Source of the DNA: a virus
Lineage: Duplodnaviria; Caudoviricetes
Direction: 5' to 3' (one strand)
IMG/VR virus record: IMGVR_UViG_3300036779_000075
Span: 1-58,838 of that record
Length of the DNA stretch: 58,838 bases
Shown: positions 19,314-52,621 of the stretch, one piece after another
Layout: every line of letters starts with the position of its first letter
How positions within the stretch are numbered: position 1 is the stretch's first letter
The notes under the pieces: model-generated
What the model was told of the DNA's origin: nothing
The model's database searches: none
What the model saw: the letters and a program-made list of their open reading frames with translations, nothing else
Position numbers and translations under genes: made by a program

Positions 19314-19324
19314 TGGTCGCCGCC

Positions 19325-19330
19325 ATCGTA
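19325..19330 (-). promoter_or_regulatory. -10 element for the tRNA pair
   Basis: TACGAT on - strand 11 nt upstream of the tRNA-Ser(CGA) 5' end. Confidence 0.5.
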
Positions 19331-19426
19331 GCGGCCCAGCGCCATCTGCTTCCGCAAATACTGAGGCATTGATACTGTTCGGATAGCGGACAGTGAGTCA
19401 TCCTCAGCGAACGGCGGGAGGCGGCA

Positions 19427-38837: not shown

Positions 38838-39781
38838 CGGTCACCGGCTGTGATATCGCCTGGCAGAAGCCGACCGGGGCGCAGCTGGCCGCGGCGGGAA
38901 TCCACTTCGCGAGCCTGTACGTCGGGCAGGACACCACGGGCAAGAACATGACCCCGGCCGTGGTCGCGGACTACGCGGCGCACGGCGTGGCGGTGATCGC
39001 GAACTTCGAGTACGGCGCCCAGCAGATGCTCGGCGGCGCGCCACAGGGCGCGGTCGACGCGGCGCTCGGGCTTCAGCAGGCCCGCGCGTGCGGGATGCCG
39101 GCGGGGCGCCCGATCATTTACAGCGCGGACTGGGCGGCCACGGCGGCGCAGATCACGGGCGCGGTCATCCCGTACCTGGTGGCGGCGCGCGGCGTGACGG
39201 GGCCGGGCACGGTGGGTGTGTACGGCTCGTACGCGGTGGTTACGGCGGTGTCCGCGTACTGGGCGGCGCATTTTCCCGGTGAGCGGGTGTTCCTGTGGCA
39301 GACGGTCGCCTGGTCGAATTCGCGCTGGGCGCAGCTCGGCGAGGTGCAGCAGACGGGCGGCACGATCACGGTCGGCGGTATCGCGCTCGACCTGGACTAT
39401 GCACCGGCCGGTGATGTCGGCCAATGGATCCCTGGAGAAGACATGCCGTTGACCACGCAAGATGTGAAGGCTGTCGCCGACGAGGTGCTCGGCCGGCTGA
39501 TCCCCCGCGCTGGTGGCCAGTCCGGCCCGACGAGCCTGGGCGGGATGGTCGCCTGGAATGACGCGCACGTGCAGAACCTCGCCAACCAGGTCAGCGGAGT
39601 GAAGGACGCGATCGCCGCGTCGGGGGCGCCGGTCGACGTGAAGGCGCTGGCCGTGTCGCTGGCCGCCGCCGTGCAGCCCGCGATCGTCGCAGCCGTGCAG
39701 GCGGGGATCGCGCCGGAGGCCGACCAGCTCGCGGTGACGTTCGAGCAGCACCTCGCGTCCACGTTCGCGCAGGCCAAGTAG
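38834..39781 (+). CDS. Endolysin, DUF1906/Rv2525c-like glycoside hydrolase
   Basis: GCD.A, GKNMT, NFE, PIIYSAD, GVYGS, WQTVAWS, DLD. Confidence 0.85.
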   Translation: MTVTGCDIAWQKPTGAQLAAAGIHFASLYVGQDTTGKNMTPAVVADYAAHGVAVIANFEYGAQQMLGGAPQGAVDAALGLQQARACGMPAGRPIIYSADWAATAAQITGAVIPYLVAARGVTGPGTVGVYGSYAVVTAVSAYWAAHFPGERVFLWQTVAWSNSRWAQLGEVQQTGGTITVGGIALDLDYAPAGDVGQWIPGEDMPLTTQDVKAVADEVLGRLIPRAGGQSGPTSLGGMVAWNDAHVQNLANQVSGVKDAIAASGAPVDVKALAVSLAAAVQPAIVAAVQAGIAPEADQLAVTFEQHLASTFAQAK

Positions 39782-40227
39782 TGTCGCGAATCGACGGGCT
39801 GCTGCACGTGCTGCGGCAGCAGCCGTACGAGGCGGCGCTCGCGCTCGCGCTGGCGGTCAGCGCCGTGGCGAGCCTGAGCACGGGCGCTCCGCCCGGTGCC
39901 GCGGCGCGGGTGCTGCCGGTGTGGGCGCTGCGGCCCGCCGCGGCACTGCTCGCGCTGTCGGGCGCGCTGACGGTGGGCGGCCTGTTCGGCGCCGGGTACG
40001 TGCTCTCGGACGTGCGGCGCGTGCTCGCGCGCAGGGTCGAGCAGTCGGGGCAGACGCTGATGGGCGGCGTGCTGCTCGCGGTCGCGCTGGGCGCGTTCTC
40101 GGCGGGCCGCGTGGGGATCGTCCCGGGCACGATCTACGCGGCGCTGGCCGCGGCCAGTTCGGGGCGGGCGGCGCTGATCGGGCACACCTTCCGTGCGGCC
40201 GGCCGTGAGCGGACGGACCTGATATGA
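39781..40227 (+). CDS. 4-TM membrane protein (holin-like)
   Basis: Hydrophobic helices; coupled to the endolysin. Confidence 0.6.
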   Translation: MSRIDGLLHVLRQQPYEAALALALAVSAVASLSTGAPPGAAARVLPVWALRPAAALLALSGALTVGGLFGAGYVLSDVRRVLARRVEQSGQTLMGGVLLAVALGAFSAGRVGIVPGTIYAALAAASSGRAALIGHTFRAAGRERTDLI

Positions 40228-40658
40228 GGGCTGACACGGTTGCCGCCGTGGCCGCTGTCGCGGTGTCGGTGCTCACCGCGCTGGGCACCCTGTACCGGGG
40301 TGTGCGCCGCCGGGAGCGCGATCAGGGGGCGGCGCCGTTCCTCGCGGGCAAGGCCGCGATCGAGGAAGCGGAGACGGCGCTGGCGTGGAAGGATCGGCGC
40401 ATCCGTGACCTGGCCGCGAGCGAGGCGACGCTCAAGACGGACCTCGCCGCCGCGGTCGCGACTTCCGCGGCGCAGCAGGAGCAGCTGACGCGGCTTCAGG
40501 CCCGGCTGTACCAGGTGGAGTCGGAGAACCGGGAGCTGCTGGCGCACAAGGAGGAGTCGGAGCAGCGCGACCGTGCCTCTCGGGAGCGGATCTCGGCGCT
40601 GGAGTCGACGGTGGACGATCTGAAGCGGAAGCTGTCGCTCGGCGGCCCGACGTTCTGA
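40224..40658 (+). CDS. N-terminal TM + coiled-coil lysis-cassette protein
   Basis: One TM then heptad repeats. Confidence 0.7.
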   Translation: MRADTVAAVAAVAVSVLTALGTLYRGVRRRERDQGAAPFLAGKAAIEEAETALAWKDRRIRDLAASEATLKTDLAAAVATSAAQQEQLTRLQARLYQVESENRELLAHKEESEQRDRASRERISALESTVDDLKRKLSLGGPTF

Positions 40659-40712
40659 AACACCGGACTTGATCTAGCTGTGCCGGTATCCTGGAATCCC
40701 CCGTGTGACACG

Positions 40713-40746
40713 AGAAGCCCCCGCCCTCCCCCCGGCGGGGGCTTCT
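40713..40746. terminator. Bidirectional terminator hairpin
   Basis: agaagcccccgcc/ggcgggggcttct between convergent genes. Confidence 0.75.
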
Positions 40747-40806
40747 CCGCGTGCCCGTGGTGCTCGCCGCTCCTGGTGCCGGCGTGCGGCCGTAAGACCG
40801 CCGGAT

Positions 40807-41484
40807 CTATCTGCCCGACTGGACGAGCGTCACGTCGGCGTGTGCGGTCTTCAGATCTGCTGCGACTTTCGCGGCGGCGGCGTCCAGGTCGGATTGCGTC
40901 GCGGCCGAGATCTGGTAGCCGACCGCTGCCTGGATCCATGCGTTGATGTCGGACTGCACGGTGGCCGTGTCGTCGCGCCACCGGCCCATCGCCGCGGGTT
41001 CGTCGGCGGGGTTGAATCCGGCGTCGGCCTGGGTGAACGCGTCCTGGTATGTGGTGACGTCCTGTTCGATGCGGGTGGAGGTGCGCCAGGCGGAGAATTT
41101 GGACGCGGCCGAGTTCGGGTCGTCGAGCGCGGCCAGGCCGGCGTTGGCGTCCGCGTACCGGGTGGTGCCGACGATTGCTCGTCCGGTGGCGAATTCCGAG
41201 GCGTAGTGGTCGATGGCGTTGTTCAGCACTGCGGCGGCCTTCGTGCGCGCGGAGGCTGGTGCGAGGGGGTTGGCCGCGGTACTGCTGTTCGTCGCGGTGG
41301 GGGCGGCTGTGTGTGGCGCGGCGGTGGCGTTCGTGTTGCCGGAGTGTAGTGCGGCTCCGAGTGCCGCGATCAGTGCGAAGACGGCGAGGATGGTTCCGGC
41401 GGCGATGAGGGCGATCTTGTTGGTTCGGCGGCGCTTGGCGTTCGGCTGCTGCGGCGCGGTGGTTCCTTGTTCGCGTTCTTGCAT
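40807..41484 (-). CDS. Membrane-anchored secreted helical protein
   Basis: Basic stretch + TM (IALIAAGTILAVFALIAALGAAL), Ala/Thr linker, helical ectodomain. Confidence 0.75.
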   Translation of the reverse strand: MQEREQGTTAPQQPNAKRRRTNKIALIAAGTILAVFALIAALGAALHSGNTNATAAPHTAAPTATNSSTAANPLAPASARTKAAAVLNNAIDHYASEFATGRAIVGTTRYADANAGLAALDDPNSAASKFSAWRTSTRIEQDVTTYQDAFTQADAGFNPADEPAAMGRWRDDTATVQSDINAWIQAAVGYQISAATQSDLDAAAAKVAADLKTAHADVTLVQSGR

Positions 41485-41582
41485 GGTGCCCCCCAGGCTG
41501 CTTGGTCTGCGGGGGCACGGTAGCGCTACGGGGGGTGGCCGCGCGTGGTTTCGGGGTGAATGGGGGCGTGCGCCCGGCGCGC

Positions 41583-42374
41583 TCACGCCGCGAGCGGGTG
41601 GCAGGCGGGGCAGCGGTACGGCGGTCCGTTGTCTTCGACCATCCTGGTGCGTTCGTTGCATGCTCCGCAGTGCGGTGGGCGTTTCGGCTGGGTGCTAGTC
41701 CCGGCTGGTGTGGCGGACTCAGCGCGCCAATCGGCGACATGGCCAGGCAGGTCCCCCTCGGCGGCGACCTTGCGCCACCAAGCGCTGCTTCGGGGCTTGC
41801 GGGTGATCTTTATCCAGTCGATGAATCTCTTCTCATCTTCCTCGCCAAGGTCGATCCCGGCGGTGCGCAGGATGCGCTGAGGCGGAAGAAGATGAGGATC
41901 TTCTTCATGAGGGAACTGAGGAGATGGGCCGGACCGCGGTCCGGCCAAAGGCGGACTAGCGTCCGGCCATAGGTCGCTTATGCCCGGACTGTCGTCCGGC
42001 CTTGGACTGGTCTTTGGCCGGACTGTCGTCCGAGCATTGGCGCTATGGCCGGACTGTGGTCCGGGTACGGATTCGGCGAACCGCGGCAGCCGGTAGGTCG
42101 TTTGGACCCCCTTCATGGCGTAGATCGTCCGGCCCGTCTTGTCCTTGCCGACCGGCACGCGCACCTCAAGACCGCGCTTCGCCAGCCGCTGGAGGACGCG
42201 CCCGACGCCGTCTGCGGTCATCCGCATCCAAGAGCACAGCTCATCCATGCCGGGGAAGCACTCGCGCGTCTCTTCGTCGGCGTCGTCGGCCAGGATCAGC
42301 AGCAGTGCCAGTTCCCCGGCGTCGAGGTCGGCGGGGGCGTGGTCCTTGACCTCGCGGTACAGCTGGAATCCCAT
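41583..42374 (-). CDS. Second replication initiator (Rep2; wHTH N-domain, internal iterons, C-terminal Zn motif)
   Basis: ELALLLILADDA.EETRECFPG...L..LAKRGL; C-terminal CGACNERTRM...YRCPACHP. Confidence 0.75.
   Translation of the reverse strand: MGFQLYREVKDHAPADLDAGELALLLILADDADEETRECFPGMDELCSWMRMTADGVGRVLQRLAKRGLEVRVPVGKDKTGRTIYAMKGVQTTYRLPRFAESVPGPQSGHSANARTTVRPKTSPRPDDSPGISDLWPDASPPLAGPRSGPSPQFPHEEDPHLLPPQRILRTAGIDLGEEDEKRFIDWIKITRKPRSSAWWRKVAAEGDLPGHVADWRAESATPAGTSTQPKRPPHCGACNERTRMVEDNGPPYRCPACHPLAA
41885..42064. repeat. Putative ori2: five palindromic iterons CCGGAC-N4-GTCCGG
   Basis: Copies at 41929, 41951, 41984, 42018, 42049; adjacent gaagaagat-gagg-atcttcttc palindrome (41885-41906). 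Confidence 0.8.
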
Positions 42375-42496
42375 CACACCGGTCCAGCCGTGCGTCTGGG
42401 GCGCGCGCACTTTGTACCCGAAGTGACCCCGGCGCTGTCTAGGGATGTGGCACTTCTGCAAGGATGTGACCGTACATCGCTATAGAGGGGACATCC

Positions 42497-43249
42497 GTGG
42501 CTGAGAAGAAGGCAGCTCGACAACCGTTGCGCGACCTTGTGGCCAACGACCTTCGCACGAAGATCGAGAATGGCGATCTCGCTCCCGGAGCGCAGCTTCC
42601 CAGCGAGACGGAGATCGTCGGGCAGTACGGCGTGTCCAACATGACTGCCCGAGCCGTGATCGCTGTGCTTCGCGGCGAGGGCCTGATCCGGGTCGAACGC
42701 GGCAAGGGGGCGTTTGTCAGGGATTCCTCGCCGATCCTGCGGGACGCGACGACGCGGCTGTCCGCGCAGCAGTGGGGGGCTGGTCACGCGATCTGGAGTT
42801 CCGATCTGGGGCTTAGGCCGTTGGGCATTGACCGCGTCGACGTGAACCGGATGCAGCCCCCGAAGGACGTGGCGGCCCTGCTGGCCTACGACGGTGAGGT
42901 CGTGGTGCGTGATCGCGTCTACTCGGTCGAGGGCAGGCCGGTGCAGTGGGCGGTGTCCTACATCCCGGCCGACCTGGCGGCCGAGACGCTGATCGAACGC
43001 GTGGACACAGGGCCCGGCGGCACGTACGCGCGCTTGCGGGACATCGGGCACGAACCGGTGAAGTTCGTGGAACAGGTGCGGGTGCGCATGCCGCGTCCGA
43101 TCGAGCGCGAGAACCTGAAGCTGGACGTCGGTCAGCCCGTCGCCGCGATCCGCCGGACGGCGGCGACGGAGGCCGGCCGAGTGGTCGAGGTGAACGACAT
43201 GGTGTTGGTCGGAGATGCCTACGTGTTGCAATGGTCCTTCACCTCCTGA
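42497..43249 (+). CDS. GntR/HutC (UTRA) repressor, KorSA/KorA-like
   Basis: LPSE.E...YGVS..TAR...L..EGLI...GKGAFV + UTRA domain; upstream of the transfer cluster. Confidence 0.9.
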   Translation: MAEKKAARQPLRDLVANDLRTKIENGDLAPGAQLPSETEIVGQYGVSNMTARAVIAVLRGEGLIRVERGKGAFVRDSSPILRDATTRLSAQQWGAGHAIWSSDLGLRPLGIDRVDVNRMQPPKDVAALLAYDGEVVVRDRVYSVEGRPVQWAVSYIPADLAAETLIERVDTGPGGTYARLRDIGHEPVKFVEQVRVRMPRPIERENLKLDVGQPVAAIRRTAATEAGRVVEVNDMVLVGDAYVLQWSFTS

Positions 43250-43266
43250 CCTGATCTGTCCTGTTC

Positions 43267-43300
43267 AGGGCCCTGGGCGCTCGCCTAGGGCCCTTTTTCT
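43267..43300 (+). terminator. Intrinsic terminator
   Basis: agggccctgggcg-ct-cgcctagggccct followed by T-tract. Confidence 0.85.
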
Positions 43301-43318
43301 ATGCCCGATTCAGGTTCG

Positions 43319-43367
43319 TTGACAGTCTAGCTTGACTTAGATGTCTATGTCGAGCAACACTGTCTAC
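43319..43367 (+). promoter_or_regulatory. Transfer-operon promoter with GTCTA half-site repeats (candidate GntR operator)
   Basis: TTGACA and TTGACT boxes, AACACT 6 nt before ATG (leaderless-type); gtcta x3, also at 42436. Confidence 0.55.
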
Positions 43368-43622
43368 ATGGAACTCGCCGGGAACACGACGCCGAAGGCG
43401 CCCGAAGAGGGCGACTGGCTCACAGTCGCCGAGTTCGCGGCCCTGTTCCGCGTCCAGCCTCAGACGATCTACACGGCGATCGCGGCAGGCAAGATCGAGG
43501 GCGTCATCCGCATCGGCGACCGACGGGGCACTCGCATCCCGGCGGCGTCGGTCGAGCCGTTCCGCCGTAGCCGCCTCGTCGCGTCCCAGCAGTCCGACCC
43601 GACCGCGCCGAGCGCCGCCTGA
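43368..43622 (+). CDS. Excisionase-like HTH_17 protein
   Basis: WLTVAEFAALFRVQPQTIYTAIAAGKI...RIP. Confidence 0.85.
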   Translation: MELAGNTTPKAPEEGDWLTVAEFAALFRVQPQTIYTAIAAGKIEGVIRIGDRRGTRIPAASVEPFRRSRLVASQQSDPTAPSAA

Positions 43623-43900
43623 TGGCCGCCTGCGTCCTGAGCGCCGACGACCCGGCCCTGCAAGCCGATATCGACGCCGCCCGCCAGGCCGCCGACGCCC
43701 CCGAAGCGGTCGACGACTACCGCCACGCCCTGATCCAGGCCATGGCCGACCGCGACGCCGGAACCGACCCCGCCACCGTGCTGCGCGCCCTGTGGCGCGC
43801 CGCGTACATCGCCGGACACCTCGACCGCGCCCGCCACGACCGCCACCAGACCCGCCGCGCGCGGCTCGAAACCGCCGTACTCGCCACCACCGCCCCCTGA
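43622..43900 (+). CDS. hypothetical protein
   Basis: TGATG coupling. Confidence 0.6.
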   Translation: MAACVLSADDPALQADIDAARQAADAPEAVDDYRHALIQAMADRDAGTDPATVLRALWRAAYIAGHLDRARHDRHQTRRARLETAVLATTAP

Positions 43901-43925
43901 CCCGCCGACCCACTGGAGCCCCGCG

Positions 43926-44264
43926 ATGCTCACGGACACCGACGGCGACTCGGCCGCCCCCGAATACGCCGAAACACGCTCCACCACCGTCGTCATCGGC
44001 CGCCCCATGATCGACGCCATCACCATCGAGACCAGCATCGTCGTCTCCAACCACGCCAGCGGACGCGGCTACCACGTCAACCTCCACACCGAGAACGACG
44101 TGGTCGAGTTCAACCCGCTGCGCGCCCGCGACGCCGCGAACAAGTTCAGGCGCATCGCGGCCGACCTCGACACCCTCGCCGACGACGCGGACAGGCTCAC
44201 CGCCCTCGAAGCCGAAACCAAGGCCCTGCTAGACGGACGCGCCCGCACCGCCGACACCGCATAG
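43926..44264 (+). CDS. hypothetical protein
   Basis: GGAG RBS; GC3 bias. Confidence 0.65.
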   Translation: MLTDTDGDSAAPEYAETRSTTVVIGRPMIDAITIETSIVVSNHASGRGYHVNLHTENDVVEFNPLRARDAANKFRRIAADLDTLADDADRLTALEAETKALLDGRARTADTA

Positions 44265-44298
44265 GCCGCCGACAAACCACCCCGGAAGGACACCGACC

Positions 44299-44496
44299 AT
44301 GGGCATCCGCCCCACCCGCCAGGCCGTACTCGCCGAAGAGATCACCCACCGGCAGGGGCGCCTCGACAACCAGCGGGCCGCACTCGCCCGCACCACCGAC
44401 CCCGAGCAGCGCGAAACCCTCAAGCAGGGGATCCACCGCAACGAGGGCCAGATCTCACGCGCATCCACCGAACTGTCCGACCTGCTGAACAGCTAG
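44299..44496 (+). CDS. small coiled-coil protein
   Basis: GAAGGA RBS. Confidence 0.65.
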   Translation: MGIRPTRQAVLAEEITHRQGRLDNQRAALARTTDPEQRETLKQGIHRNEGQISRASTELSDLLNS

Positions 44497-44671
44497 CCCC
44501 GATCGGCCGCCCGCGCCCTGCTGCCACCTCCCCTCCAAGGCCGGGGCGCGGGCGGTCACCACCCGATCGATCGGGCCGGAAGCCCGACGGACCCCAACCC
44601 CGTTCGCCTCCCGCCAGCCGCCGGGCTCCCCGTCCGACCGGACGAACACCTACCGCGAGAGGAACCCGACC

Positions 44672-44836
44672 GTGGGCAGCAAGGACAAGCCCCAGACCCC
44701 GAGCGCGCAGGTCCCGCGCACCGCAGCCGACGTGCTCGCCGACGGATGGCAGGACGGCGACGACTTCGAGATTTCCTTCATCGTCACCGCCCCCGCACAG
44801 CCACAGAACACCAAGCAGCGGAACCGCCGGTCCTGA
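44672..44836 (+). CDS. small hypothetical protein (54 aa, not in ORF track)
   Basis: GAGAGGA RBS; MGSKDKPQTP...GWQDGDDFEISFIV. Confidence 0.55.
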   Translation: MGSKDKPQTPSAQVPRTAADVLADGWQDGDDFEISFIVTAPAQPQNTKQRNRRS

Positions 44837-44947
44837 CCGGCCCGGACGCCCTGCGGCCACCACCACAGCCCCGCGACCGCAGGGCGCCCAGACCGACCAG
44901 CACCACCCGAAACCGACCACACGCCACAACCCGGAAGGACCGCCGCG

Positions 44948-45277
44948 ATGCGCCTGAACTTCGGCGAGATCGACTTCGACACCAAGGGCCTGCCGCGCAT
45001 CTACTCGCTGAGCGTCTCCCCGGCCTACACCGACAAGAACAGCCTGATCGTCAGAATCCTGCTCGACAGTTGCCAGCGCGCGGCAGTCGCGAAATGGGCC
45101 GACCGCCTCGGCGTTCCGGTCGTGGACCGCAAGCCGTACCAGTCGCGCCCGGCCGCCCGCTGGACGCACACCTTCGAGGCCGTGCGCGAGGTCGAGGGCT
45201 ACCGGGTGAAGGTGTGGACGTCGATCGACCTCGACGAGCCCGCGACCGGCAGCAGCGAGCCGGACGGCGGCGCGTGA
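44948..45277 (+). CDS. hypothetical protein
   Basis: GGAAGGA RBS. Confidence 0.65.
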   Translation: MRLNFGEIDFDTKGLPRIYSLSVSPAYTDKNSLIVRILLDSCQRAAVAKWADRLGVPVVDRKPYQSRPAARWTHTFEAVREVEGYRVKVWTSIDLDEPATGSSEPDGGA

Positions 45278-45429
45278 TGTTCAAAGCCCTCGCCGCCTCG
45301 CTCGGCTTCGCCTACGCCGCGCACTCCCCCATCCTGTCCGCCGCGCTCCTGCCCACCGTGGCGATCACCGTCGCGGCCGAAGCCGCCTACGTCATCCGCA
45401 CGCTGCGCCGGAAGAAGGTCCGCACGTGA
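45277..45429 (+). CDS. small membrane protein (Spd-like)
   Basis: Hydrophobic, basic C-terminus; coupled to the DUF2637 gene. Confidence 0.55.
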   Translation: MFKALAASLGFAYAAHSPILSAALLPTVAITVAAEAAYVIRTLRRKKVRT

Positions 45430-46517
45430 CCGAGCAAACCACCCCGGCACCGCTGTGGCGCCCCACCCCCGAAGGCGCGCGCACGCTGCTGGTGTTCATC
45501 GCCGCCGCAGTCGCCGTGATCGGCGCCATCGCCCTCGCGCTCTCCTTCGTCAGCGTCGACCAGGCCGCCCGCCCCTACTTCGGCGCCGCGTCCTGGGCGA
45601 TCCCCGTCCTGATGGACACCACCATCGGCGTCATGACGTTCTTCTCCATCGTCTCCGAGCTGAACGGGATCACCGCGCCCCTGGCCCGCTACGGCGGCCG
45701 CGCACTGGTCGCCCTCACCGTGTACGCCAACGTCGCCCCCCAGCACAGCCTGTACGGCAGGATCCTGCACGGCGCACCGCCCGCCGTGTGGACGCTGGTC
45801 GTCGTCATCGCCGAGAACACCATCCGCCGCCTCATGCGCCTGAGCGACGAGAAGCACATCGAAGCGCTACGCCGCTCCCTGTGGCTGCTGCGCCCGGCCG
45901 CGACATGGCGGATCTGGCGGCGCATGCGCATCGAGCAGATCACCACCTACCGCGCCGCGCTCGACCACGACGCCGCCCGCGCCGCGGTGGTCGGCCGTCT
46001 GCGCGTGAGCCACGGGCGCATGTGGCGCAGCAAGGCGCCCCTGGCCGAGCGGATCGCGCTGCGCCTGCAGGGCCGCGATCCGGCCGGTGTGGCCGAGATC
46101 CTGACCGCGCACCAGGAGACCGCCGCACTGCTCGCCGGACCCGCCACCGGCCCGCAGGAGGCGCCCGAACCCGCCGAAACCGGCAACGCCTTGATGCCGC
46201 TGGACCCCATCGTCTACCCGCTGACAGAACGCCCCGTTCTCTCGCCGTTCGGCGCCGCGAACGCGCTGGGCATCCCGTTCTCCCCCGGCGCCCGCGCAGT
46301 GCTGCCGTGGCTCGGCTTCAGCGCCACACAGAACGCACTGGAGAACGGACAGAACGCAGAGAACGACGCGGAGAACGACCGGGGCGCCGCGATGCGGATG
46401 CGGACCGCCGGCATGTCCATCGGAGCCATCGCCGACCAGCTCGGCCGCTCCAAAAGCTGGGTCCACGGCGTCGTGACCGCCGAGCCCGTCGAGCACGCCA
46501 ACGGATCAGCGGCCTGA
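45426..46517 (+). CDS. DUF2637-like multi-TM transfer/spread protein with C-terminal HTH
   Basis: ALSF...WAIPV..D...LTVYANV...HGAPP; W.L.P..T.RIWRRM; C-terminal HTH. Confidence 0.75.
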   Translation: MTEQTTPAPLWRPTPEGARTLLVFIAAAVAVIGAIALALSFVSVDQAARPYFGAASWAIPVLMDTTIGVMTFFSIVSELNGITAPLARYGGRALVALTVYANVAPQHSLYGRILHGAPPAVWTLVVVIAENTIRRLMRLSDEKHIEALRRSLWLLRPAATWRIWRRMRIEQITTYRAALDHDAARAAVVGRLRVSHGRMWRSKAPLAERIALRLQGRDPAGVAEILTAHQETAALLAGPATGPQEAPEPAETGNALMPLDPIVYPLTERPVLSPFGAANALGIPFSPGARAVLPWLGFSATQNALENGQNAENDAENDRGAAMRMRTAGMSIGAIADQLGRSKSWVHGVVTAEPVEHANGSAA

Positions 46518-46602
46518 CCGCCTGCCGGTGGCCCGTCCCGTCCCCGCAGACGGGCGGACCGCCGCGGGCGACCAGCCCGAAACCGAACCGAGAGGAACCC
46601 GC

Positions 46603-46758
46603 ATGCCCGGCAAGAGCACCGACAAGGACGTCACCGTCACCAAGCCCACCGGCGAGAGCAGGACCTTCGGCCCGATGCCGACCTTCGACGCCGTGGTCGC
46701 CGCCGCCGCCGCCCAGCTCGCCGGGCACGGCGCCACCGTGCGCCCCACCGCCCGCTAG
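46603..46758 (+). CDS. small hypothetical protein
   Basis: GAGAGGA RBS. Confidence 0.5.
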   Translation: MPGKSTDKDVTVTKPTGESRTFGPMPTFDAVVAAAAAQLAGHGATVRPTAR

Positions 46759-46864
46759 CCGAGCAGCAGGTCTGAGCACTGCACGGCACCCGACCGGCTC
46801 GACGTCGGCCGGGTGGCCGCGGGTACTGAGCCCAGCCGCCCCTCGAAGGAGGACAGCACACGTC

Positions 46865-49060
46865 ATGACCGAGACACCCGAGGTCGAGCGGGCCAACGGG
46901 CACGGCCCGATCGTGTCCGGCGCGACCGGGAACGTGCCGGGACAGCGCGAACCCCAGGACGCGCCCCCGCCCGAGTTGTCGCCCGTCCCGGATCCCGATG
47001 ACGAGCCGGCCGACGAACCCGACGACGCTGAGATCCTGATCGACCTCGGCGACCTGCGGGAACTGCTACCCGAGCCGATCCGCGCACCCCGCCGGTTCGT
47101 CGGCCGCCACGCCCGGCACGTCGCCGTCGGCGCCCAGGTGTACGCCGCCCGGCGCCGCGACGCGCGCTCGACCGCCCGGCACGAACGGATGATGCGCGCC
47201 GCCGAAGCCGCAGGCGACCACGCCTCGGCGCTGGAGTGGGAGACCCGCGCCGCCGCGTTCCGCAAGGAACGCCACTCCCGGCGCATGGCGCTGCTGCGCG
47301 CACCGATCTACGCGGCCAAGGCCGCCATCAACCTCGCCGCCCTCACCGCGGGCGCCCTGATCGCGCTCGGGCTGATCCTCGGCGTGACCAGCAAGAACCC
47401 CGCCGAAGCAACCGTGCCGCTGCGCGCGGCGTTCCGCGTGGTGTGGTGGATCTGCTGGGCGATCGACATGGCCTGGCGCCCAGCGCTGGCCGCGACCCCG
47501 GTACTGATCCTGACCGGCCTGTGGGCGCTGGGCCGGGCGCACTCCCCCTCGCCGTCCATGCTGTACGGCGAGGACGACGAGGGCGACGGCCGCGAACTGG
47601 TGCCGGACGAGTCCGCGATCCTCTCCGCGCTGCGCAATCTGAACCTCGGCCCGATGAACAAGGCCGTACGCGAAGGCTGGCGCCCGCGCTGGATCCTCGG
47701 CGCGGTCGAGGACGGCGCCGGCTGGCACTCGCAGCTGCTGCTGCCGCAGGGCGTCACCGTCGAGATGATCAACCGGTACAAGAACACCCTCGCTAGCAAC
47801 CTGCTGCGCAAGCCCATCGAGGTGTGGCCCACCGAGCCGGACAACAAGCCCGGCGTGCTGGACCTGTGGGTGGCCAACCCGAACACCCTGACCGGCCCGG
47901 TGCCGCCGTGGCCGCTGCTGAAGACCGGCACCGCGGACTACTTCAAGGGCGTGCCGGTCGCGCTCTCGCTGCGCGGCGAGCCGATCCGCGCGCAGCTCAT
48001 GGCCCGCAACTACATGATCGGCGGGATCATGGGGACGGGTAAGTCCTCGGCGACCAGGGCGATCGTTCTCGGCGCCGCGCTCGATCCGCTGGTCGAGATC
48101 GAGGTGTACGTCATGGCGTACAACGCCGACTACGACCTGATGCGCCCGCGGCTGCGCGCCCTGGTCAAGGGCGACGAGGACGAGGACATCGAGCAGGCGG
48201 TCAAGGCCCTGCGCCGGCTGCGCTCCGAGGTCACCCGGCGCGGCCAGGTGCTCGAAGAGACCGGTGAGCTCAAGCTCACCCGCGAGCTCGCGCGCCGCGA
48301 CAAGCGGATGCGCCCGCTGGTCGTGGTGTTCGACGAGGTGCACGAGCTGTTCGAGCACAAGCAGTACGGCGAGGAGGCCGCCGAGCTGGCCGTGAAGGTC
48401 CTGAAGAAGGCCCGCAAGTGCGGGATCACGCTGGTGTTCGTGACCGTCTCGCCGACCGCGGCCAGCATCCCGAAGGACGTGACCCGCAACACCTCCAACC
48501 GGGTCGCGTTCGCGGTCGGCGACCACGTCGCCAACGACGGGCTGCTGGGCACCGGCAAGCACAAGGCCGGGGTCACCGCGACCACGCTGAACCCGGCAAC
48601 CGACATCGGCACCTCGCTCACCGTCGGGTTCACCTCCAACCCGTTCGACATCGCGCGCTGGCAGTACGTCACCGACGAGCAGGTGGCGCCCGTCATCGAC
48701 CGGACGTGCAAGGCCCGCGAGGGCACGGAGCGCGCCGCGCTCGACCAGCCGGCGGCGGTCGCGGTCATCGACCCGATCGAGGACGTCGCGGCGATCCTCG
48801 GCGACGCGCCCCGGATGCGCACGCAGGACGTCCTGGAGCGGCTGCGGCTGATGCGCCCGTCGGCGTACGAGGAGCTGGACTTCCCGAAGCTGACCGGGCT
48901 GCTGCGCGCGGTCGACGCCGAGCCGCACAAGTCGTCGGGCATCTCGACGGTCGACGCCCGCAAGGTGCGCGACGCGCTCGACCGGCGCCGCGGCGAGGAC
49001 CCCGGCGGGGGCGACGAGGCGCCGGAAGACGACGAAATCGGCCAGGGAGGCACCCAGTGA
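46865..49060 (+). CDS. traB: FtsK/SpoIIIE-family conjugative DNA translocase (TraB/TraSA-like)
   Basis: Two TM segments, Walker A GIMGTGKS, Walker B VVVFDEVHE, ARKCGI, C-terminal wHTH; GAAGGAGG RBS. Confidence 0.88.
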   Translation: MTETPEVERANGHGPIVSGATGNVPGQREPQDAPPPELSPVPDPDDEPADEPDDAEILIDLGDLRELLPEPIRAPRRFVGRHARHVAVGAQVYAARRRDARSTARHERMMRAAEAAGDHASALEWETRAAAFRKERHSRRMALLRAPIYAAKAAINLAALTAGALIALGLILGVTSKNPAEATVPLRAAFRVVWWICWAIDMAWRPALAATPVLILTGLWALGRAHSPSPSMLYGEDDEGDGRELVPDESAILSALRNLNLGPMNKAVREGWRPRWILGAVEDGAGWHSQLLLPQGVTVEMINRYKNTLASNLLRKPIEVWPTEPDNKPGVLDLWVANPNTLTGPVPPWPLLKTGTADYFKGVPVALSLRGEPIRAQLMARNYMIGGIMGTGKSSATRAIVLGAALDPLVEIEVYVMAYNADYDLMRPRLRALVKGDEDEDIEQAVKALRRLRSEVTRRGQVLEETGELKLTRELARRDKRMRPLVVVFDEVHELFEHKQYGEEAAELAVKVLKKARKCGITLVFVTVSPTAASIPKDVTRNTSNRVAFAVGDHVANDGLLGTGKHKAGVTATTLNPATDIGTSLTVGFTSNPFDIARWQYVTDEQVAPVIDRTCKAREGTERAALDQPAAVAVIDPIEDVAAILGDAPRMRTQDVLERLRLMRPSAYEELDFPKLTGLLRAVDAEPHKSSGISTVDARKVRDALDRRRGEDPGGGDEAPEDDEIGQGGTQ

Positions 49061-49213
49061 GGCAGGGAGTTCTCCCTATCCGCCTCCCTGGCCGCAATCG
49101 ACGCCATGACCTGCGATGACACACCGTTAGGGAGGCAGGGAGGCGAGGGAGGCGGCCGCGCGGTGACCGGTGAAACACCGGTTTTCGCGCATAGGGTCCA
49201 CCTCCCTCCCTGC
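49044..49213. repeat. clt-like locus: 8-bp AGGGAGGC repeats (candidate TraB recognition sequences)
   Basis: Perfect copies at 49044, 49129, 49137, 49146; inverted at 49082; variants at 49056, 49064, 49201-49213. Confidence 0.75.
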
Positions 49214-49253
49214 CCCGATCCGACGTCCACGACCTGACACGGAAGGCCCGATC

Positions 49254-49706
49254 ATGACCCGCCGCCGACCGCTGCGCACCCTCACCCGCAAGGCGCGCCG
49301 AAGCCTCAAGCGCCGCGCCCGGCGGGCCTGGCGCCGCTCACTTCGACGCGCCGTCGCATGGCGCCGCCGGCAGATCGCCCGCCAGGCCCGCGCCCGGCAG
49401 GAGCGCCGGGCCGCGCACGCCGCGGCGCCGGAGCTGTCCGCCCGCTCGATCACCGGCAGGCCGCGCCCCGCGAAGACCGCCGCACCGAGCGCCGCGCCGG
49501 CCAGTGGACCGGCGACCACCAAGCGCACCCGCGACGGGAAGTTCAACGGCTCGAAGTCGACCGGGAAGAAGACCGCGGCGAAGAAGACGGTCGCGAAGAA
49601 GGCCGCCGTCCCGGACGCGCAGCGCGACCTCGCCCGCGGCGACGCTACCCTGCGCCGCGTCGAGGGCCGTCTCGCGCGCACCGAGAAGCGCATCGACAAG
49701 CTCTGA
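49254..49706 (+). CDS. Highly basic Arg/Lys-rich protein
   Basis: GGAAGG RBS; RRR-rich N-terminus, KKTAAKKTVAKKAA. Confidence 0.6.
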   Translation: MTRRRPLRTLTRKARRSLKRRARRAWRRSLRRAVAWRRRQIARQARARQERRAAHAAAPELSARSITGRPRPAKTAAPSAAPASGPATTKRTRDGKFNGSKSTGKKTAAKKTVAKKAAVPDAQRDLARGDATLRRVEGRLARTEKRIDKL

Positions 49707-49742
49707 TCTGACCCCCGATATGTGACCTTATCGAGGGCCAGA
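49707..49742. other. loxP-like recombination site (14-8-14)
   Basis: tctgacccccgata-tgtgacct-tatcgagggccaga; arms 12/14 inverted match; 20 bp upstream of the Cre-like gene. Confidence 0.75.
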
Positions 49743-49762
49743 ACCGAAAGGGATCAGCCGCA

Positions 49763-50794
49763 GTGACCATCGAGGCGTACCGCCCCGCAGAGATCGCTAC
49801 CGCCGCACCGGGTGCGCCCGAGCCGTACGACCCGGAGACCGCCGACCGCCTTGCCGCGCTCGACGCGGCCAGCGACTGGCATGCTGAGCAGATGCGCCCG
49901 GACAACACCCAGAGCGCCTACCGCGACGACTGGAACGCGTGGCTTGAGTTCACCGCCGCGACCGGCCTGCCGCTGACCGCCGCGACGCGCGGCACCTTGC
50001 GCGCGTTCGTCATCTGGCTCTGGGAGGCAGGCCGCGCGCCGACGACGATTGACCGGCGGCTGGCCGGCCTGGTCGTCACCCTGCGGCGCGATCACCGGGT
50101 TGTGATCAACCCTGACGATACGGCGGCCGCGCGGCAGCTGCTCAAGGACTGCGTCCGCAAGTCCGCCGAGTTGCGTGAGGCTCCGCGCGGCCGCGGGCAG
50201 GCAGCGCCGCTGCTGCTCGCCGATCTGCGCAGGATCAGCGCAGCGTGCCCCGACTCGCTCACCGGTATCCGGGATCGGGCGCTCCTGCTGCTCGGGTTCG
50301 CTATCGCCGGGCGCCGCTCGGAGGTCGCCGGGCTCATGGTGCGCGACATCGCCGACGACCCGAACGGGCTCGTGGTCGACGTGCGAGTGTCCAAGACGAA
50401 GCCGCGCGTGGTCGCCGTCCCGTACGGGTCGAATCCGCTCACGTGCCCTGTGCGGGCCTGGCGTGCGTGGTGCGAGGCGGCCGGGCTCGACGGTCCGGAC
50501 GGTCCGGCGTTCCGCCGCGTCGATCGCCACGGGCGGCTACTCGGTGGCCTGTCCGGCGCTGCGGCGGGCGACATCGTGACCCGCGCGGGCGAGCGGGCCG
50601 GAGTTGCGGTGCACCTGACGGGGCACAGCGTGCGCGCGGGTCTGGCGACCGAGGCGAGACGCGCGGGCAAGGACCGCAAGGCCATCGCCGCGGTCACGGG
50701 GCACGTGCCGAACTCGGCCGCGCTCGATCAGTACCTGCGCACGGTGGACCGCTGGTCGGACGAGGACAACGCGCTCATCGGGATCGGGCTCTAG
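49763..50794 (+). CDS. Cre-like tyrosine recombinase (resolvase)
   Basis: NT..AY..DW, RDRALLLLGF...RRSE, SKT, GHSVRAG, TGH, Y. Confidence 0.9.
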   Translation: MTIEAYRPAEIATAAPGAPEPYDPETADRLAALDAASDWHAEQMRPDNTQSAYRDDWNAWLEFTAATGLPLTAATRGTLRAFVIWLWEAGRAPTTIDRRLAGLVVTLRRDHRVVINPDDTAAARQLLKDCVRKSAELREAPRGRGQAAPLLLADLRRISAACPDSLTGIRDRALLLLGFAIAGRRSEVAGLMVRDIADDPNGLVVDVRVSKTKPRVVAVPYGSNPLTCPVRAWRAWCEAAGLDGPDGPAFRRVDRHGRLLGGLSGAAAGDIVTRAGERAGVAVHLTGHSVRAGLATEARRAGKDRKAIAAVTGHVPNSAALDQYLRTVDRWSDEDNALIGIGL

Positions 50795-50807
50795 CTCCAA
50801 AGCGAAA

Positions 50808-50832
50808 CGCCCCGGCCTGGTTGACCGGGGCG
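50808..50832. terminator. Hairpin terminator
   Basis: cgccccgg/ccggggcg; T-rich tail on the - strand. Confidence 0.65.
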
Positions 50833-51066
50833 CTCACTGGGTCGCCGTCCGCCACACGCCTTACGTGGCTTCGAGCCGCACCCTCGCGTCGGGCACCGCG
50901 TGCGTGCCCTCAATTGGTAGCTGTTGTGCCCCGCCTGTCGACCTCATGCCTCCGGCAACGGGGCTAGGACGCCTACCGGACCGCCTAGCGTCGTGCGGCA
51001 TTGTAGCGCGGGCCGCGACAGGACTGGGTCGGACTGCGGCACGGCAGAGTGAATCAGGGTTCTCGG

Positions 51067-51346
51067 TGCGAGTAGATTGCGAGTAGAGGTCAGGTTCGCG
51101 GCCGTTCAGCCGCGGTGATTGCGTACCCTGGCGCAGGGGTGGCGTTCACTATCCCTGCTGGTCACCGTTGACGTCGTGTCAACACACCAGTTCGATAGGT
51201 CGGCCCCGGCGCGCCGCTGTTGAATCTCTCTTATGCATGCGAGAGAGCCGCTCTCTCGCATGCACGCTTGTGACCTGGAGGAACTAGAACAACGCGTTGT
51301 CGGCTGCGGGAAGAATCCGGGCCGCTGCGAGTAGATTGCGAGCAGG
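51067..51346. other. Putative intact attP
   Basis: Arm-type TGCGAGTAGA direct repeats (51067, 51078; 51326, variants 51337, 51305) flanking inverted core gttgac-gtcgt-gtcaac (51167-51183). Confidence 0.65.
51234..51264. terminator. Perfect 14-bp inverted repeat downstream of integrase
   Basis: tgcatgcgagagag-ccg-ctctctcgcatgca. Confidence 0.55.
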
Positions 51347-52621
51347 GCGCCGGGGCGGGCCGTTGCGGCCGAGCAGCCACGCCGCTAGCGCCTCGATCAG
51401 GGTGACCGGCTGCCATTGCTGCCAGACCTGCTCAAGCCACTCGATCAGCTCGGCGCGCATCTCAGGCGTGGGGTGCGCGTAGGTGCCGGGTGCGCCGGCC
51501 GCCGCGTGCCCGAGCCGGTAGTCGCGCATTACCGGGTGGATGCGGCCGTTGTTGAGCAATGCGGCCTGCGTGTGCTTCAAATCGTGCAGGTGCAGCCCGG
51601 CGTGCACGGGCGCGACAGCCTCGCGCGCCCGGCCCCTCGGCGTCACCTCGGCCGCCCTGCCGTCGCAGGCGGGGCGCCAGCGGTCGCGGTTCCAGGCGTC
51701 GTACTGCCGGTAGCCGCCCAGCCTGTTCGGGAACAGGACGTCCTGCTGCTGCGGCAGCGCCGCCAGGTACGCGAGCAGCAGGACGACCAGGAACGGCGGC
51801 AGGTCGATGACCCGGCCCGGCGGGTATCCGGGGCCCAGCGAGCCCGACGCCCCGGACTTCGGGGGGCCGAGGAAGCGGCGCGAGTGCTTGTCCTCGTGTA
51901 CGGCGCCCTTGGCCGGATCGATGACGTAGTAGCCCGCCGCGGCGCGGCTGGCGTCCGCCGCGCGCAGGACGAGGAACCGGCGGCGCATCGCGGCCAACTC
52001 CGACCAGCGCATGCCCGTGAACAGTGCTATCAGGACCATCAGGGCCTCGTCGCCGCGCAGGCGCAGCATGATCTGCTCAACCTGGTCCAGCGGAACGACG
52101 ACGCCCTCGCGCTTGGGCTTGGGTGGCGTGACGGACTCGCGCCCGCGCCGGTCCTTCGGCGGCATGGGCGACACGCTGATCATCTTGTTGCGCACGGCGT
52201 CCGCGAGGCAGTCGCTCAGCGGCGCGGTGATGACGGCGACGGTGGACGCGGCGTACCGGTCGCGCAGGCTGTTGATCCACTCCTCCATCTTCAGTGGGCG
52301 GATCGCGGCCAGCGGTGTACTCCCCCAACGCGGCCCGATGTGCTTGCGCCAGTGCTGCTCGTAGGATTCGCGGGTGTTGGGCCTGTAGCGCTGGACGGGG
52401 AACCACTCCCCCCACCACTCCCCCACGGTGCGCTCGCCGAGCTTGGGGTCGATCCAAGTGCGGGCCCGGATCGCGGCTTCCTGGTCGCGGCCGTACTTGA
52501 GCGCGGTGTCCTTCGTGCGGAAGCCGTCCTCGTAGCCCTCGAGGTGCCGCCCCTTCTCATTGCGCTCGGCGAGCTGCCAGCGCACCCACCACGATCCGTT
52601 GCGCTTGCCGGCGTACGCCAC
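51284..52621 (-). CDS. int: Tyrosine integrase
   Basis: GGAGG RBS + GTG; arm-binding N-domain (GF.TK..A..Y), WIDP..G, TGMRWSE, PPKS, HDLKH, RLGH, TYAH. Confidence 0.92.
   Translation of the reverse strand: MAYAGKRNGSWWVRWQLAERNEKGRHLEGYEDGFRTKDTALKYGRDQEAAIRARTWIDPKLGERTVGEWWGEWFPVQRYRPNTRESYEQHWRKHIGPRWGSTPLAAIRPLKMEEWINSLRDRYAASTVAVITAPLSDCLADAVRNKMISVSPMPPKDRRGRESVTPPKPKREGVVVPLDQVEQIMLRLRGDEALMVLIALFTGMRWSELAAMRRRFLVLRAADASRAAAGYYVIDPAKGAVHEDKHSRRFLGPPKSGASGSLGPGYPPGRVIDLPPFLVVLLLAYLAALPQQQDVLFPNRLGGYRQYDAWNRDRWRPACDGRAAEVTPRGRAREAVAPVHAGLHLHDLKHTQAALLNNGRIHPVMRDYRLGHAAAGAPGTYAHPTPEMRAELIEWLEQVWQQWQPVTLIEALAAWLLGRNGPPRRPARNLLAAARILPAADNALF

Follow-up and report, generated by a model that had tools for sequence, protein, structure and literature searches.

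A putative TraB-type conjugation module carried by a complete temperate actinomycete siphovirus

The 58,838-nt stretch of DNA analysed here (IMG/VR record IMGVR_UViG_3300036779_000075; hereafter the window) represents a temperate siphovirus genome of ~59 kb that is complete and circularly permuted. Sequence comparisons support a TraB-type transfer unit as a physical part of this genome, and suggest that the phage may be passed on through mating in addition to its virions. With moderate confidence, we regard the element as a conjugative, AICE-like prophage; a phage-plasmid maintained by stable partitioning fits less well. The initial annotation had proposed a candidate conjugative phage-plasmid; its TraB-type unit within a complete temperate phage stands, and its plasmid part is weakened because PF13614 and PF02195 searches of the window matched no ParA or ParB (none had been visible before), Rep is of phage type, the genome encodes integrases and no site resembling lox turned up. 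The retained integrase and attP fit an AICE-like life of integration, excision, transfer and re-integration better than a stable episome.

Phage genome and module boundaries

Circular permutation is indicated because both window ends fall inside one tandem coding repeat (12/120-nt) and the 3'-open ORF at the window end is completed in frame 2 where the window begins. CheckV rates the record as 100% complete. The virion set (TerL, portal, protease, MCP, TMP, tail proteins and endolysin) is present together with lysogeny genes, and attP and int are uninterrupted. Early genes are continuous across the window ends, GC content is even (0.66–0.73) and the window contains no host genes. The host is a high-GC actinomycete, probably mycelial; the closest named relatives of the phage's TraB are from Actinocrinis and Streptomyces.

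As initially annotated, the module lies between the lysis cassette and attP of an otherwise complete siphovirus, in a slot bounded by lysis genes (38.8–40.7 kb) and attP/int (50.8–52.6 kb). The lysis cassette, which forms the left boundary, opens with a plus-strand endolysin gene (38834–39781; phrog_13480, E = 6.6e-25) whose last 180 nt share 88% identity with a related phage, G001. Two small plus-strand membrane-protein genes follow (39781–40227 and 40224–40658), with three hydrophobic segments in the first product and one N-terminal segment in the second (Kyte-Doolittle scan); neither had a match in family searches, and their position suggests holin-like or lysis accessory roles. A GC-rich plus-strand hairpin (40712–40747; perfect 14-nt arms, 8-nt loop) closes the late operon. 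On the right, the attP region (50795–51283; 75–80% nucleotide identity to G001) has an arm-like repeat, GCGAGTAGATTGCGAG, at 51064–51112, a further copy of which lies beyond the region at 51323–51371; searches for the attP core and attB returned neither. The boundary itself is the minus-strand gene for a 445-aa phage integrase (51284–52621; phrog_1, E = 9.5e-43; 83% amino acid identity in G001), the stop of which adjoins a perfect 31-bp palindrome with a 1-nt spacer (51234–51264).

The left edge of the module is probably at ~40.8 kb, where a minus-strand ORF of unassigned function was called (40807–41661; 140 aa by coding bias, or as many as 284 aa if the first ATG is used); it had no Pfam or PHROG match and a weak SCO2400-family match (E = 0.0037). 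Judged by gene content, the slot carries an intact, heritable transfer module of ~10 kb and of actinomycete AICE/plasmid type. All module ORFs are open in the window, with strong third-position GC bias.

Composition and relatives of the module

By similarity, the module is a three-part mosaic. On the left, the initiator with its iterons, GntR, Xis and two small ORFs have counterparts in a sister phage (G001) only, the middle (small ORFs, DUF2637, TraB, clt-like array and a conserved ORF) is 54–77% identical to non-phage soil AICE-like elements, and the Xer-like recombinase resembles that of the plasmid-phage pZL12.

The minus-strand initiator gene rep2 (41583–42461; PHROG 'replication initiation', E = 5.4e-6) encodes a protein with an HTH_36 domain (Pfam, E = 1.3e-6) at the N-terminus and a CxxC...CxxC motif at the C-terminus. 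Homologues are rare (41 among 5.8 billion proteins); that of G001 is 55% identical, and one from Frankia sp. EI5c (42%) is encoded immediately upstream of a DnaB gene. We interpret Rep as a rare phage-type, lambda-O-like initiator with a presumed origin within its own gene. By the criteria of PMC3218068 it does not belong to the AICE replicases of RepSA, RepAM or Prim-Pol type. The iterons first ascribed to rep2 correspond to an iteron-like array that is notable for its clustering: 7 of the 12 window copies of GGCCGGAC, on both strands, cluster at 41927–42134 inside the Rep ORF, the total itself not exceeding chance (mean 9.75). TRF reports a 34-bp unit repeated 3.5 times at 41952–42064. Contigs with Rep homologues are often 58.8–63.4 kb long, which suggests that a ~60-kb genome including the module is normal for the lineage.

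Divergent from rep is a plus-strand GntR/UTRA gene (42497–43249; Pfam E = 3e-17 and 4e-20), with a strong terminator directly 3' of it (43267–43294). It shares 35% identity across 242 aa with the GntR gene of pSVH1, itself divergent from the spd/traB operon, and its product is a candidate TraR/Kor-type regulator. Downstream on the same strand are an Xis-like HTH_17 protein (43341–43622; PF12728, E = 3.6e-8; phrog_66 excisionase, E = 9.7e-7), two small ORFs with 73% and 52% amino acid identity in G001 (43622–43900 and 43926–44264) and four further small ORFs from the gene call (44299–45429); the small ORF at 44948–45277 is 59% identical to one in the non-phage element L006. A plus-strand DUF2637 membrane protein with a C-terminal HTH (45426–46517; PF10935, E = 1.9e-17) has two hydrophobic segments and 54–63% identity in L006 and L015, and is a candidate transfer or spread accessory. 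The regulator, xis and DUF2637 calls of the initial annotation were all recovered by family searches.

The plus-strand traB gene (46865–49060) encodes a 731-aa FtsK-like double-stranded DNA translocase (PF01580, E = 5.4e-7) that is full length (99% coverage against homologues). Its Walker A (G386–S395) and Walker B (D490, E491) motifs, first described as intact, are invariant across 24 homologues, and in structural comparison the protein matches the FtsK motor best (6t8o_A, E = 9e-15). Identity is 69–76% to TraBs from soil metagenomes, 35% to pCM32 Tra and 26% to pSVH1 TraB. The membrane anchor is weakly predicted (one segment, KD 1.68).

The 8-bp repeats noted originally form a clt-like array at 49044–49153, where five of the six AGGGAGGC copies in the window (4 plus, 1 minus; all exact) lie within 110 bp around the traB stop at 49060 and degenerate copies extend to ~49215. 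This clustering is a new observation here, and the array agrees with clt as published, where TraB binds 8-bp direct repeats (PMC4447253). Among the seven nearest metagenome loci checked, four (L004, L005, L006 and L043) have a AGGGAGGC array 3' of traB and a fifth, L003, has six copies of a variant 8-mer, AGAGAGGC, after the gene; across 19 IMG/VR loci checked, AGGGAGGC is the commonest 8-mer in 12 and reaches at least four copies in 14. Presence beside traB in most relatives points to a conserved clt-like site. A conserved plus-strand ORF follows (49254–49706; 60–77% identity in L003, L004, L005, L006 and L043; no match in family searches), and its counterpart is also 3' of traB in AICE-like relatives.

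At the right end, a plus-strand gene (49763–50794) encodes a 343-aa Xer/Cre-like tyrosine recombinase with PF00589 (E = 1.2e-9) and SAM_1 domains, consistent with the Cre-like label given initially; it has weak matches at the XerC/XerD level and lacks an arm-binding domain. It is 57.6% identical to gp036 of plasmid-phage ZL12 and 50–59% identical to counterparts on 54–90 kb Streptomyces plasmids. The lox-like site of the initial annotation was not found, the sole strong inverted repeat near the recombinase being the palindrome beside the phage int stop.

G001, an independently assembled IMG/VR contig, shares int and DnaB (69% amino acid identity) and keeps both junctions: endolysin–Rep, and recombinase remnant–attP–int. 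Its slot likewise contains GntR, Xis and the two small ORFs, but the FtsK protein, of 720 aa, is a different one; of the recombinase only the last 59 bp are kept. The slot also shows erosion, with HNH/AP2 and GIY-YIG endonuclease genes inserted and an HTH_36 N-terminus fused to GIY-YIG. In 10 of 34 IMG/VR loci, TraB-clt units lie immediately upstream of TerS/TerL/portal. None of 27 phages sharing the tail protein has Rep, DUF2637 or TraB in the flanks examined, so the module is not general to this virion type.

Alternative readings and a possible life cycle

The 41–51 kb block might instead be a separate AICE-like insertion that excises itself, replicates and conjugates by means of the Xer-like recombinase and Xis, the phage being a mere vehicle or landing site. 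It does hold a full AICE-like set (recombinase, Xis-like protein, initiator, GntR, TraB, clt), and the TraB tree places the window with L006 and L003, apart from other phage-linked TraBs. L003 and L006 have no phage genes within 10 kb, and the 54–77% identity of the transfer block to such elements suggests a fairly recent import that could still act as a separate element. However, no att-like repeats flank the module, whether exact (the longest shared 10-mer is at chance level) or imperfect (best 21/30; null 90th percentile 21), and this, with the junctions and slot kept in G001, argues against both a chimera and the recent insertion of an autonomous AICE. G001, and not AICEs, has the counterparts of the left third (Rep, the end of GntR, two ORFs) and of the 3' end of the recombinase gene, G001 has a transfer cassette in the slot even without the recombinase, the rare Rep family is tied to ~60-kb contigs and DnaB, and the recombinase's nearest named relatives are in ZL12 and large Streptomyces plasmids; we consider such an insertion quite unlikely. 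That the contig is chimeric, or joins separate elements lying in tandem at a single chromosomal site, is extremely improbable: the contig ends do sit in a collapsed repeat, but both junctions recur in G001, and the lack of host genes, the continuity of early genes over the window ends and the even GC all oppose it.

The unit could also serve the phage alone, with TraB, clt and membrane proteins carrying phage or prophage DNA through the cross-walls of hyphae in a single mycelium, or acting in another phage function such as exclusion, and with no mating between individuals. The position upstream of TerS/TerL/portal in the 10 loci suggests integration into phage programmes, and isolated Streptomyces phages commonly carry FtsK-like genes. 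Those proteins are not close to the window's TraB, however (no tblastn match at E 1e-5), the GntR repressor with its own terminator resembles plasmid kil-kor control, and the pSVH1 TraB machinery is described as mediating both inter- and intramycelial transfer (PMC4447253), which makes the roles hard to separate. We judge a purely phage-serving role unlikely, though worth keeping in view. Erosion of the G001 slot would suit a decaying AICE remnant captured by recombination and with no current role, but the open, GC-biased ORFs of the window, the full-length TraB with intact motifs and the retained non-coding clt-like array make inert cargo very improbable here.

Under the preferred reading of a conjugative, AICE-like prophage, phage Int and Xis would excise a 59-kb circle with two alternative fates. 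Terminase could package it, or TraB hexamers could attach to the AGGGAGGC array and drive the circle, as double-stranded DNA, into an adjacent hypha, as in pSVH1 and AICEs. The GntR protein would hold traB off until excision (kil-kor logic), the second initiator would support replication of the circle in the recipient, the phage integrase would restore lysogeny there, and the Xer-like recombinase would most likely resolve multimers. Several observations weigh against this reading: the module owns an Xis-like gene and a recombinase, a 59-kb circle is far above classical AICE size, the TraB anchor prediction is weak, and no SpdB2 homologue was detected (pSVH1 tblastn matched the GntR and TraB genes only).

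Comparison with known elements

AICEs and pSVH1-type plasmids share with the window a single FtsK-like TraB, a clt of 8-bp repeats, a GntR Kor/TraR regulator, Int, Xis and an initiator. AICEs are 9–24 kb long and lack virion genes, whereas the window has a full virion set and its module is embedded in a 59-kb phage without att repeats of its own; SpdB2 of pSVH1 has no homologue seen in the window. The iteron-like repeats inside the Rep ORF parallel those of RepAM, which is reported to bind repeats located within its own coding sequence (PMC2440964).

Classical phage-plasmids (P1, N15, SSU5) are likewise temperate, with a plasmid-type initiator, iterons and a Cre/Xer-like recombinase. P1 has Cre-lox, a parallel to the window's recombinase. 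Such elements are kept by partition systems, usually do not integrate and are rarely conjugative; the window, in contrast, has an integrase and no ParAB, and its double-stranded DNA transfer would be via TraB, not type IV secretion.

A phage with a conjugation module is not unprecedented: the Streptomyces plasmid-phage pZL12 (GenBank record NC_013420; Zhong et al. 2010, J Bacteriol 192:3747), whose tra gene is required for conjugal transfer (PMC3583192), is a precedent. Like the window, it unites on one molecule the structural and lysis genes of a tailed phage with an FtsK-like tra, neighbouring membrane genes, GntR and a Xer-like recombinase (gp036), which is also placed after tail/lysis genes. 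Unlike the window, with its phage integrase and attP and no ParAB, pZL12 is a 90-kb plasmid with ParA/ParB, and integration into a chromosome was not noted for it. Its Tra has no detectable similarity to the window TraB (tblastn, E 1e-5), and the common genes are limited to the recombinase and, weakly, GntR (29%).

PhiNon1 of Nonomuraea gerenzanensis (59,257 bp, 70% GC) carries a prophage; it exists in two states, a multicopy circle and a form inserted at a tRNA gene, and its authors liken it to pZL12 (PMC5431353). Compared by description alone, its size, GC and dual state resemble what we propose for the window. The TraB match in the chromosome record of Nonomuraea has the look of a common AICE (GntR, DUF2637, TraB, int).

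Form and gene content of the phage genome

The initial annotation had described, between the lysis genes and attP of a siphovirus, a replication initiator (Rep) with iterons, a divergent GntR/UTRA gene, an Xis gene, small open reading frames (ORFs), a DUF2637 gene, an FtsK-family gene, 8-bp repeats and a Cre-like recombinase. All of these were found in the window, and the observation is real and robust. The composite make-up, a temperate phage genome with a conjugation-type module, is well supported and we regard it as very likely.

The window corresponds to a 58,838-bp IMG/VR virus record (GC ~70%; CheckV completeness 100%; IMG/VR class 'linear'), in which genes were called by third-position GC bias and annotated using PHROGs and Pfam. 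An early/replication region encodes DnaB (5407-6783) and a DNA methyltransferase (7327-8886). The virion gene set is complete, with TerL (16065-17393), portal (19672-21108), protease, MCP, head-tail adaptor, tape measure protein (30853-33057, structural region), tail proteins and an endolysin (38834-39781), after which come two small membrane proteins, the last ending at 40658. To the right of the module lie a phage integrase of 445 aa (51284-52621, minus strand) and, beyond it, a divergent repressor/cro-like pair and RecE-like early genes that extend past the window end. Neither the module nor the structural region had a megablast match among 50,697 phage records.

The window ends (1-414 and 58709-58838) share one 12-nt/120-nt tandem coding repeat, and frame 2 at the 5' end supplies the remainder of the ORF left open at the 3' end. 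Because both ends lie in one repeat and an ORF continues across them, the contig is a circle broken in a collapsed repeat. With attP and int intact within the contig, the sequenced molecule is an excised or virion form and not an integrated prophage with host flanks; extrachromosomal maintenance in lysogeny would give such a circular/attP form, but so would virion or induced DNA. The gene spanning the contig ends (1-520 / 58266-58838), where the assembly break falls, encodes a long alanine-rich repeat with a period of 12 nt, organized in a super-repeat of 120 nt that occurs at least 3.5 times.

The phage integrase is divergent: it matched phrog_1 (E 1e-42), yet was missed by Pfam Phage_integrase in a six-frame search. 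A search for attB with the attP region against 401 Actinomycetes genomes, including two unpublished ones (G339 and G065), returned only chance-level matches of 20-55 nt, and no tRNA was found at four of these sites. Two tandem tRNA-Ser genes (anticodons GCT and CGA; 19142-19313, minus strand) between TerL and the portal gene form an unusual break in the packaging/head operon, and a minus-strand ORF lies near them (17390-17821).

A mosaic module and its counterpart in a sister phage

Rep (41583-42461, minus strand) matched HTH_36 (E 1.3e-6) and PHROG replication initiators (E 5e-6). Seven of the 12 window copies of the iteron-like repeat GGCCGGAC lie within its ORF, which also contains a 34-bp unit repeated 3.5 times. 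Replicases of the RepSA, RepAM (DUF3631) and Prim-Pol types, one of which an AICE would carry by the criteria of Ghinet et al. 2011, are absent; the matches of Rep are confined to HTH_36 and the PHROG lambda-O-like initiator, with none in NCBIfam. The family is rare, with only 41 homologues among 5.8 billion proteins, several of them on contigs of 58.8-63.4 kb. A species-representative genome collection contained one, in Frankia sp. EI5c, directly upstream of a DnaB gene whose product is 53% identical to the phage's own.

Comparison of Rep with the ORF upstream of DnaB (4473-5099) revealed no similarity. Another ORF upstream of DnaB (3658-4575) carries a CxxC...CxxC zinc-ribbon tail (4438-4551) with 59% identity over 39 aa to the Rep C-terminus; it may represent either a remnant or a first initiator that has a helicase-contact domain in common with Rep. 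A comparable Rep-like fragment of 31 aa adjoins DnaB in a related phage from a separate IMG/VR contig, G001.

Divergent from Rep is the GntR/UTRA gene (42497-43249), with a strong terminator at its end. It shares 35% identity with the GntR gene that is divergent from the spd/traB operon of the conjugative Streptomyces plasmid pSVH1, which makes it a candidate TraR/Kor regulator; traB and traR (GntR) are described as a kil-kor pair (PMC4447253). An Xis-like HTH_17 gene (43341-43622) and a gene for a DUF2637 membrane protein with a C-terminal HTH (45426-46517) follow, and a conserved ORF (49254-49706) comes after the FtsK-family gene. The reported lack of parAB was borne out, with no window match to the ParA (PF13614) and ParB (PF02195) models and positive control searches for both. 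The phage-plasmid label is the weakest part of the initial annotation, given the missing partition system, a phage-type initiator and the presence of integrases.

The recombinase (343 aa, 49763-50794) is Xer/Cre-like, with a PF02899 SAM-like N domain, a PF00589 catalytic domain and no arm-binding domain. It matched XerC and XerD models (E 5e-12 and 4e-11) far below the model cut-offs. Its identity was 57.6% with gp036 of ZL12, a plasmid-phage of Streptomyces, and 50-59% with recombinases encoded on Streptomyces plasmids of 54-90 kb. The lox-like site proposed near it did not materialize: a scan of 49050-51300 for two ~13-bp inverted arms with a 6-8 bp spacer yielded only weak overlapping palindromes and a perfect 31-bp palindrome (51234-51264; 15-nt arms, 1-nt spacer). 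The latter is not lox-like, lies directly after the phage int stop within a stretch conserved in G001, and could be a terminator or operator.

Scanning IMG/VR with the phage integrase recovered one relative, G001 (63,364 bp, CheckV 76%), with an integrase of 83% amino acid identity. The two phages have early genes in common, including DnaB (69% aa). On the left side of the module, the endolysin 3' end (88% nt) and Rep (55% aa; 73% nt) are conserved, as is the stretch 43570-44566 (75-90% nt); on the right, the conserved sequence comprises the 3'-terminal 59 bp of the gene for the Xer-like recombinase (93% nt) together with attP and its surroundings, int and the region of the repressor. With these flanks conserved, both module junctions are therefore reproduced in an independent assembly. 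Between the flanks, G001 has no recombinase gene; its cassette encodes an FtsK/SpoIIIE protein of 720 aa, only 26% identical to its window counterpart over 180 aa, besides an HNH/AP2 endonuclease and an ORF of 293 aa. In both phages the slot is occupied by a TraB/FtsK cassette, and the middle is swapped between them. Neither the window MCP nor Pfam Phage_capsid was found in G001, and the head module of the sister phage therefore differs.

The module is itself a three-part mosaic. Its left part, with the rare Rep family, is specific to the phage lineage. The transfer block (44948-49706) is AICE-like, matching L003 and L006, two non-phage loci whose 10-kb flanks contain a serine integrase and regulators and no virion genes. 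The recombinase part has its nearest named matches in ZL12 gp036 and large Streptomyces plasmids.

G001 also has two GntR-Xis units, one per contig end, and its module contains, besides the HNH/AP2 gene next to the FtsK gene, an ORF in which a GIY-YIG nuclease domain is fused to an N-terminus of HTH_36 type. These nuclease genes (in the G001 locus L125: 14567-15070, minus strand; 19161-19736, plus strand) look like homing-endonuclease insertions.

TraB, its clt-like array and their occurrence in viral contigs

The FtsK-family protein (TraB; 731 aa, 46865-49060) matched PF01580 (E 5.4e-7), and its Walker A (G386-S395) and Walker B (D490/E491) motifs were invariant across 24 sequences. An AlphaFold model (mean pLDDT 65.6) was confident for the motor and for a C-terminal helix/strand domain (604-710), and also included long N-terminal helices (70-226). 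Its top Foldseek matches were FtsK motor domains (E 9e-15, TM 0.63). Hydrophobicity was limited to one weak segment (residues 150-168). Among 893 homologues in a large protein collection, the best (69-76% identity) came from soil metagenomes and Actinocrinis MAGs, and many Streptomyces chromosomal proteins were ~55% identical.

TraB matched 40 actinomycete plasmid records, including the integrative plasmid pCM32 (35%) and, distantly, pSVH1 (NC_007431; tblastn, PLSDB; 26% over 333 aa, E 3e-15), and the recombinase had its relative in ZL12. TraB had no tblastn match among the 50,697 isolated phage records at E 1e-5, and Rep had none in phages or plasmids. The FtsK motor, the distant relationship to pSVH1 and the clt-like array fit a TraB-type translocase. 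tblastn of all window proteins against pSVH1 matched only the GntR and TraB genes, no SpdB2-type spread protein was found, and a DUF2637 membrane protein and small ORFs take its place. SpdB2 homologues have been reported on actinophages (PMC4447253).

The strongest new evidence for TraB identity is a non-coding array of the 8-mer AGGGAGGC at the traB stop codon, a putative clt; clt sites are described as direct 8-bp repeats recognized by the cognate TraB (PMC4447253). The 58.8-kb window has six copies of AGGGAGGC, of which five fall within 110 bp around this stop (49044-49153). Of seven further loci checked, four (L004, L005, L006, L043) had a AGGGAGGC array directly 3' of traB, L003 had six copies of a variant, AGAGAGGC, at the corresponding place, and L015 and L055 had no array after traB. 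In IMG/VR, AGGGAGGC was the commonest 8-mer in 12 of 19 loci checked and reached at least four copies in 14. The region 3' of the G001 FtsK gene had no clear 8-mer array. The conserved array offers a directly testable candidate recognition sequence for a large, uncharacterized TraB subfamily.

A single TraB sequence used as query found no match in IMG/VR; an alignment-based scan identified 34 records with TraB homologues at 37-59% identity. Half of these (17 of 34) encode a phrog_12 portal, and in ten, traB has TerL or portal no more than 10 kb away. In L066, L067, L069-L073, L082, L084 and L090, TraB homologues of 46-58% identity are located 2-9 kb upstream of TerS/TerL/portal/protease/MCP genes on the same strand; L066, L070 and L084 present, on one strand, TraB, small ORFs, TerS, TerL, portal, protease and MCP. 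Four records of this terminase-adjacent group have tape-measure genes, and nine of the ten loci have at least four AGGGAGGC copies after TraB (L066 has only three). Separately, G035 (62,227 bp, direct terminal repeats, rated 100% complete) is a further complete phage genome with a TraB-type gene. Its TraB homologue shows 37-38% identity, an integrase gene follows on the same strand after ~3 kb, and the portal gene is ~34 kb distant.

In a rapid maximum-likelihood phylogeny covering 75 TraBs, in which long branches are unreliable, all seven terminase-adjacent TraBs included fell in one 22-row clade (SH-aLRT 100), and the window grouped with the non-phage L006 and L003 (SH-aLRT 100). The G001 protein sat with pSVH1 on a very long, unreliably placed branch. 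These patterns suggest that phages captured a TraB-type gene independently on several occasions. More tentatively, and in our view somewhat less likely than not, temperate phages of mycelial actinomycetes may have recruited the single-protein TraB-clt system repeatedly, at least three times: in the window's AICE-like cassette, in the divergent G001 cassette and in the terminase-adjacent clade. Such phages would make up an unrecognized class of 'conjugative prophages', able to travel as virions and also as naked dsDNA via hyphal contacts, and would be joined to AICEs in a single continuum along which modules are exchanged. The association of TraB-clt with phages appears recurrent and is directly testable.

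Possible roles of the module and its precedents

We lean, by a modest margin, towards a reading in which TraB would move the excised 59-kb circle at clt and the phage integrase would re-integrate the transferred circle. The module might instead be a nested AICE that is still autonomous: Int, Rep and Tra co-occur, with the recombinase at the right edge of the module, as in the AICE criteria of Ghinet et al. 2011 (PMC3218068). No exact or imperfect module-flanking repeats beyond chance were found between 40640-41600 and 50795-51290, and a tandem-element or att-repeat arrangement was rejected on that ground. Nor was any tRNA or tRNA fragment found at the module flanks; an Rfam scan by E-value across 40.6-51.4 kb returned three irrelevant sub-threshold matches.

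Other rivals place TraB in a phage-internal DNA-spreading role or treat the module as inert cargo. FtsK-like genes have been reported in isolated Streptomyces phages, where they were discussed in relation to host development. Should transfer of the excised circle be correct and the whole phage genome be pumped via TraB, lysogeny could reach hosts without the phage receptor or with surface-level resistance. Such transfer would tie phage host range to plasmid host range in the bacteria that are the chief antibiotic producers, and a concrete evolutionary bridge would connect AICEs and temperate phages. Provirus-calling pipelines may label such AICE-phage composites as plain viruses.

An actinomycete element that is phage and conjugative replicon at once is not new, and the nearest relatives are pZL12-like plasmid-phages and AICEs. 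AICEs have long been held to descend from plasmids and phages alike (PMC2440964). The title of the pZL12/phiZL12 report (Zhong et al. 2010) covers replication, transfer and a plasmid/lytic phage cycle, and in the pZL12 GenBank record virion genes occur together with ParAB, a GntR gene and an FtsK-like gene that has membrane-protein genes as neighbours. PhiNon1 of Nonomuraea is described as a 59-kb element that replicates and integrates (PMC5431353). In the open-access papers searched, no account of a TraB-clt unit of AICE type within an integrative tailed phage came up, and neither the Samy prophage paper nor an actinobacterial prophage survey mentions FtsK or TraB.

Rep, DUF2637 and TraB were seen in none of 27 phages with a related tail protein (31-58% identity) within the flanks examined. 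A 933-aa tail protein of the window (34757-37558; phrog_5313, E 5e-229) includes a phosphodiesterase-like segment (phrog_24476), and phage ZL12 likewise encodes a glycerophosphodiester phosphodiesterase, downstream of the tail genes.
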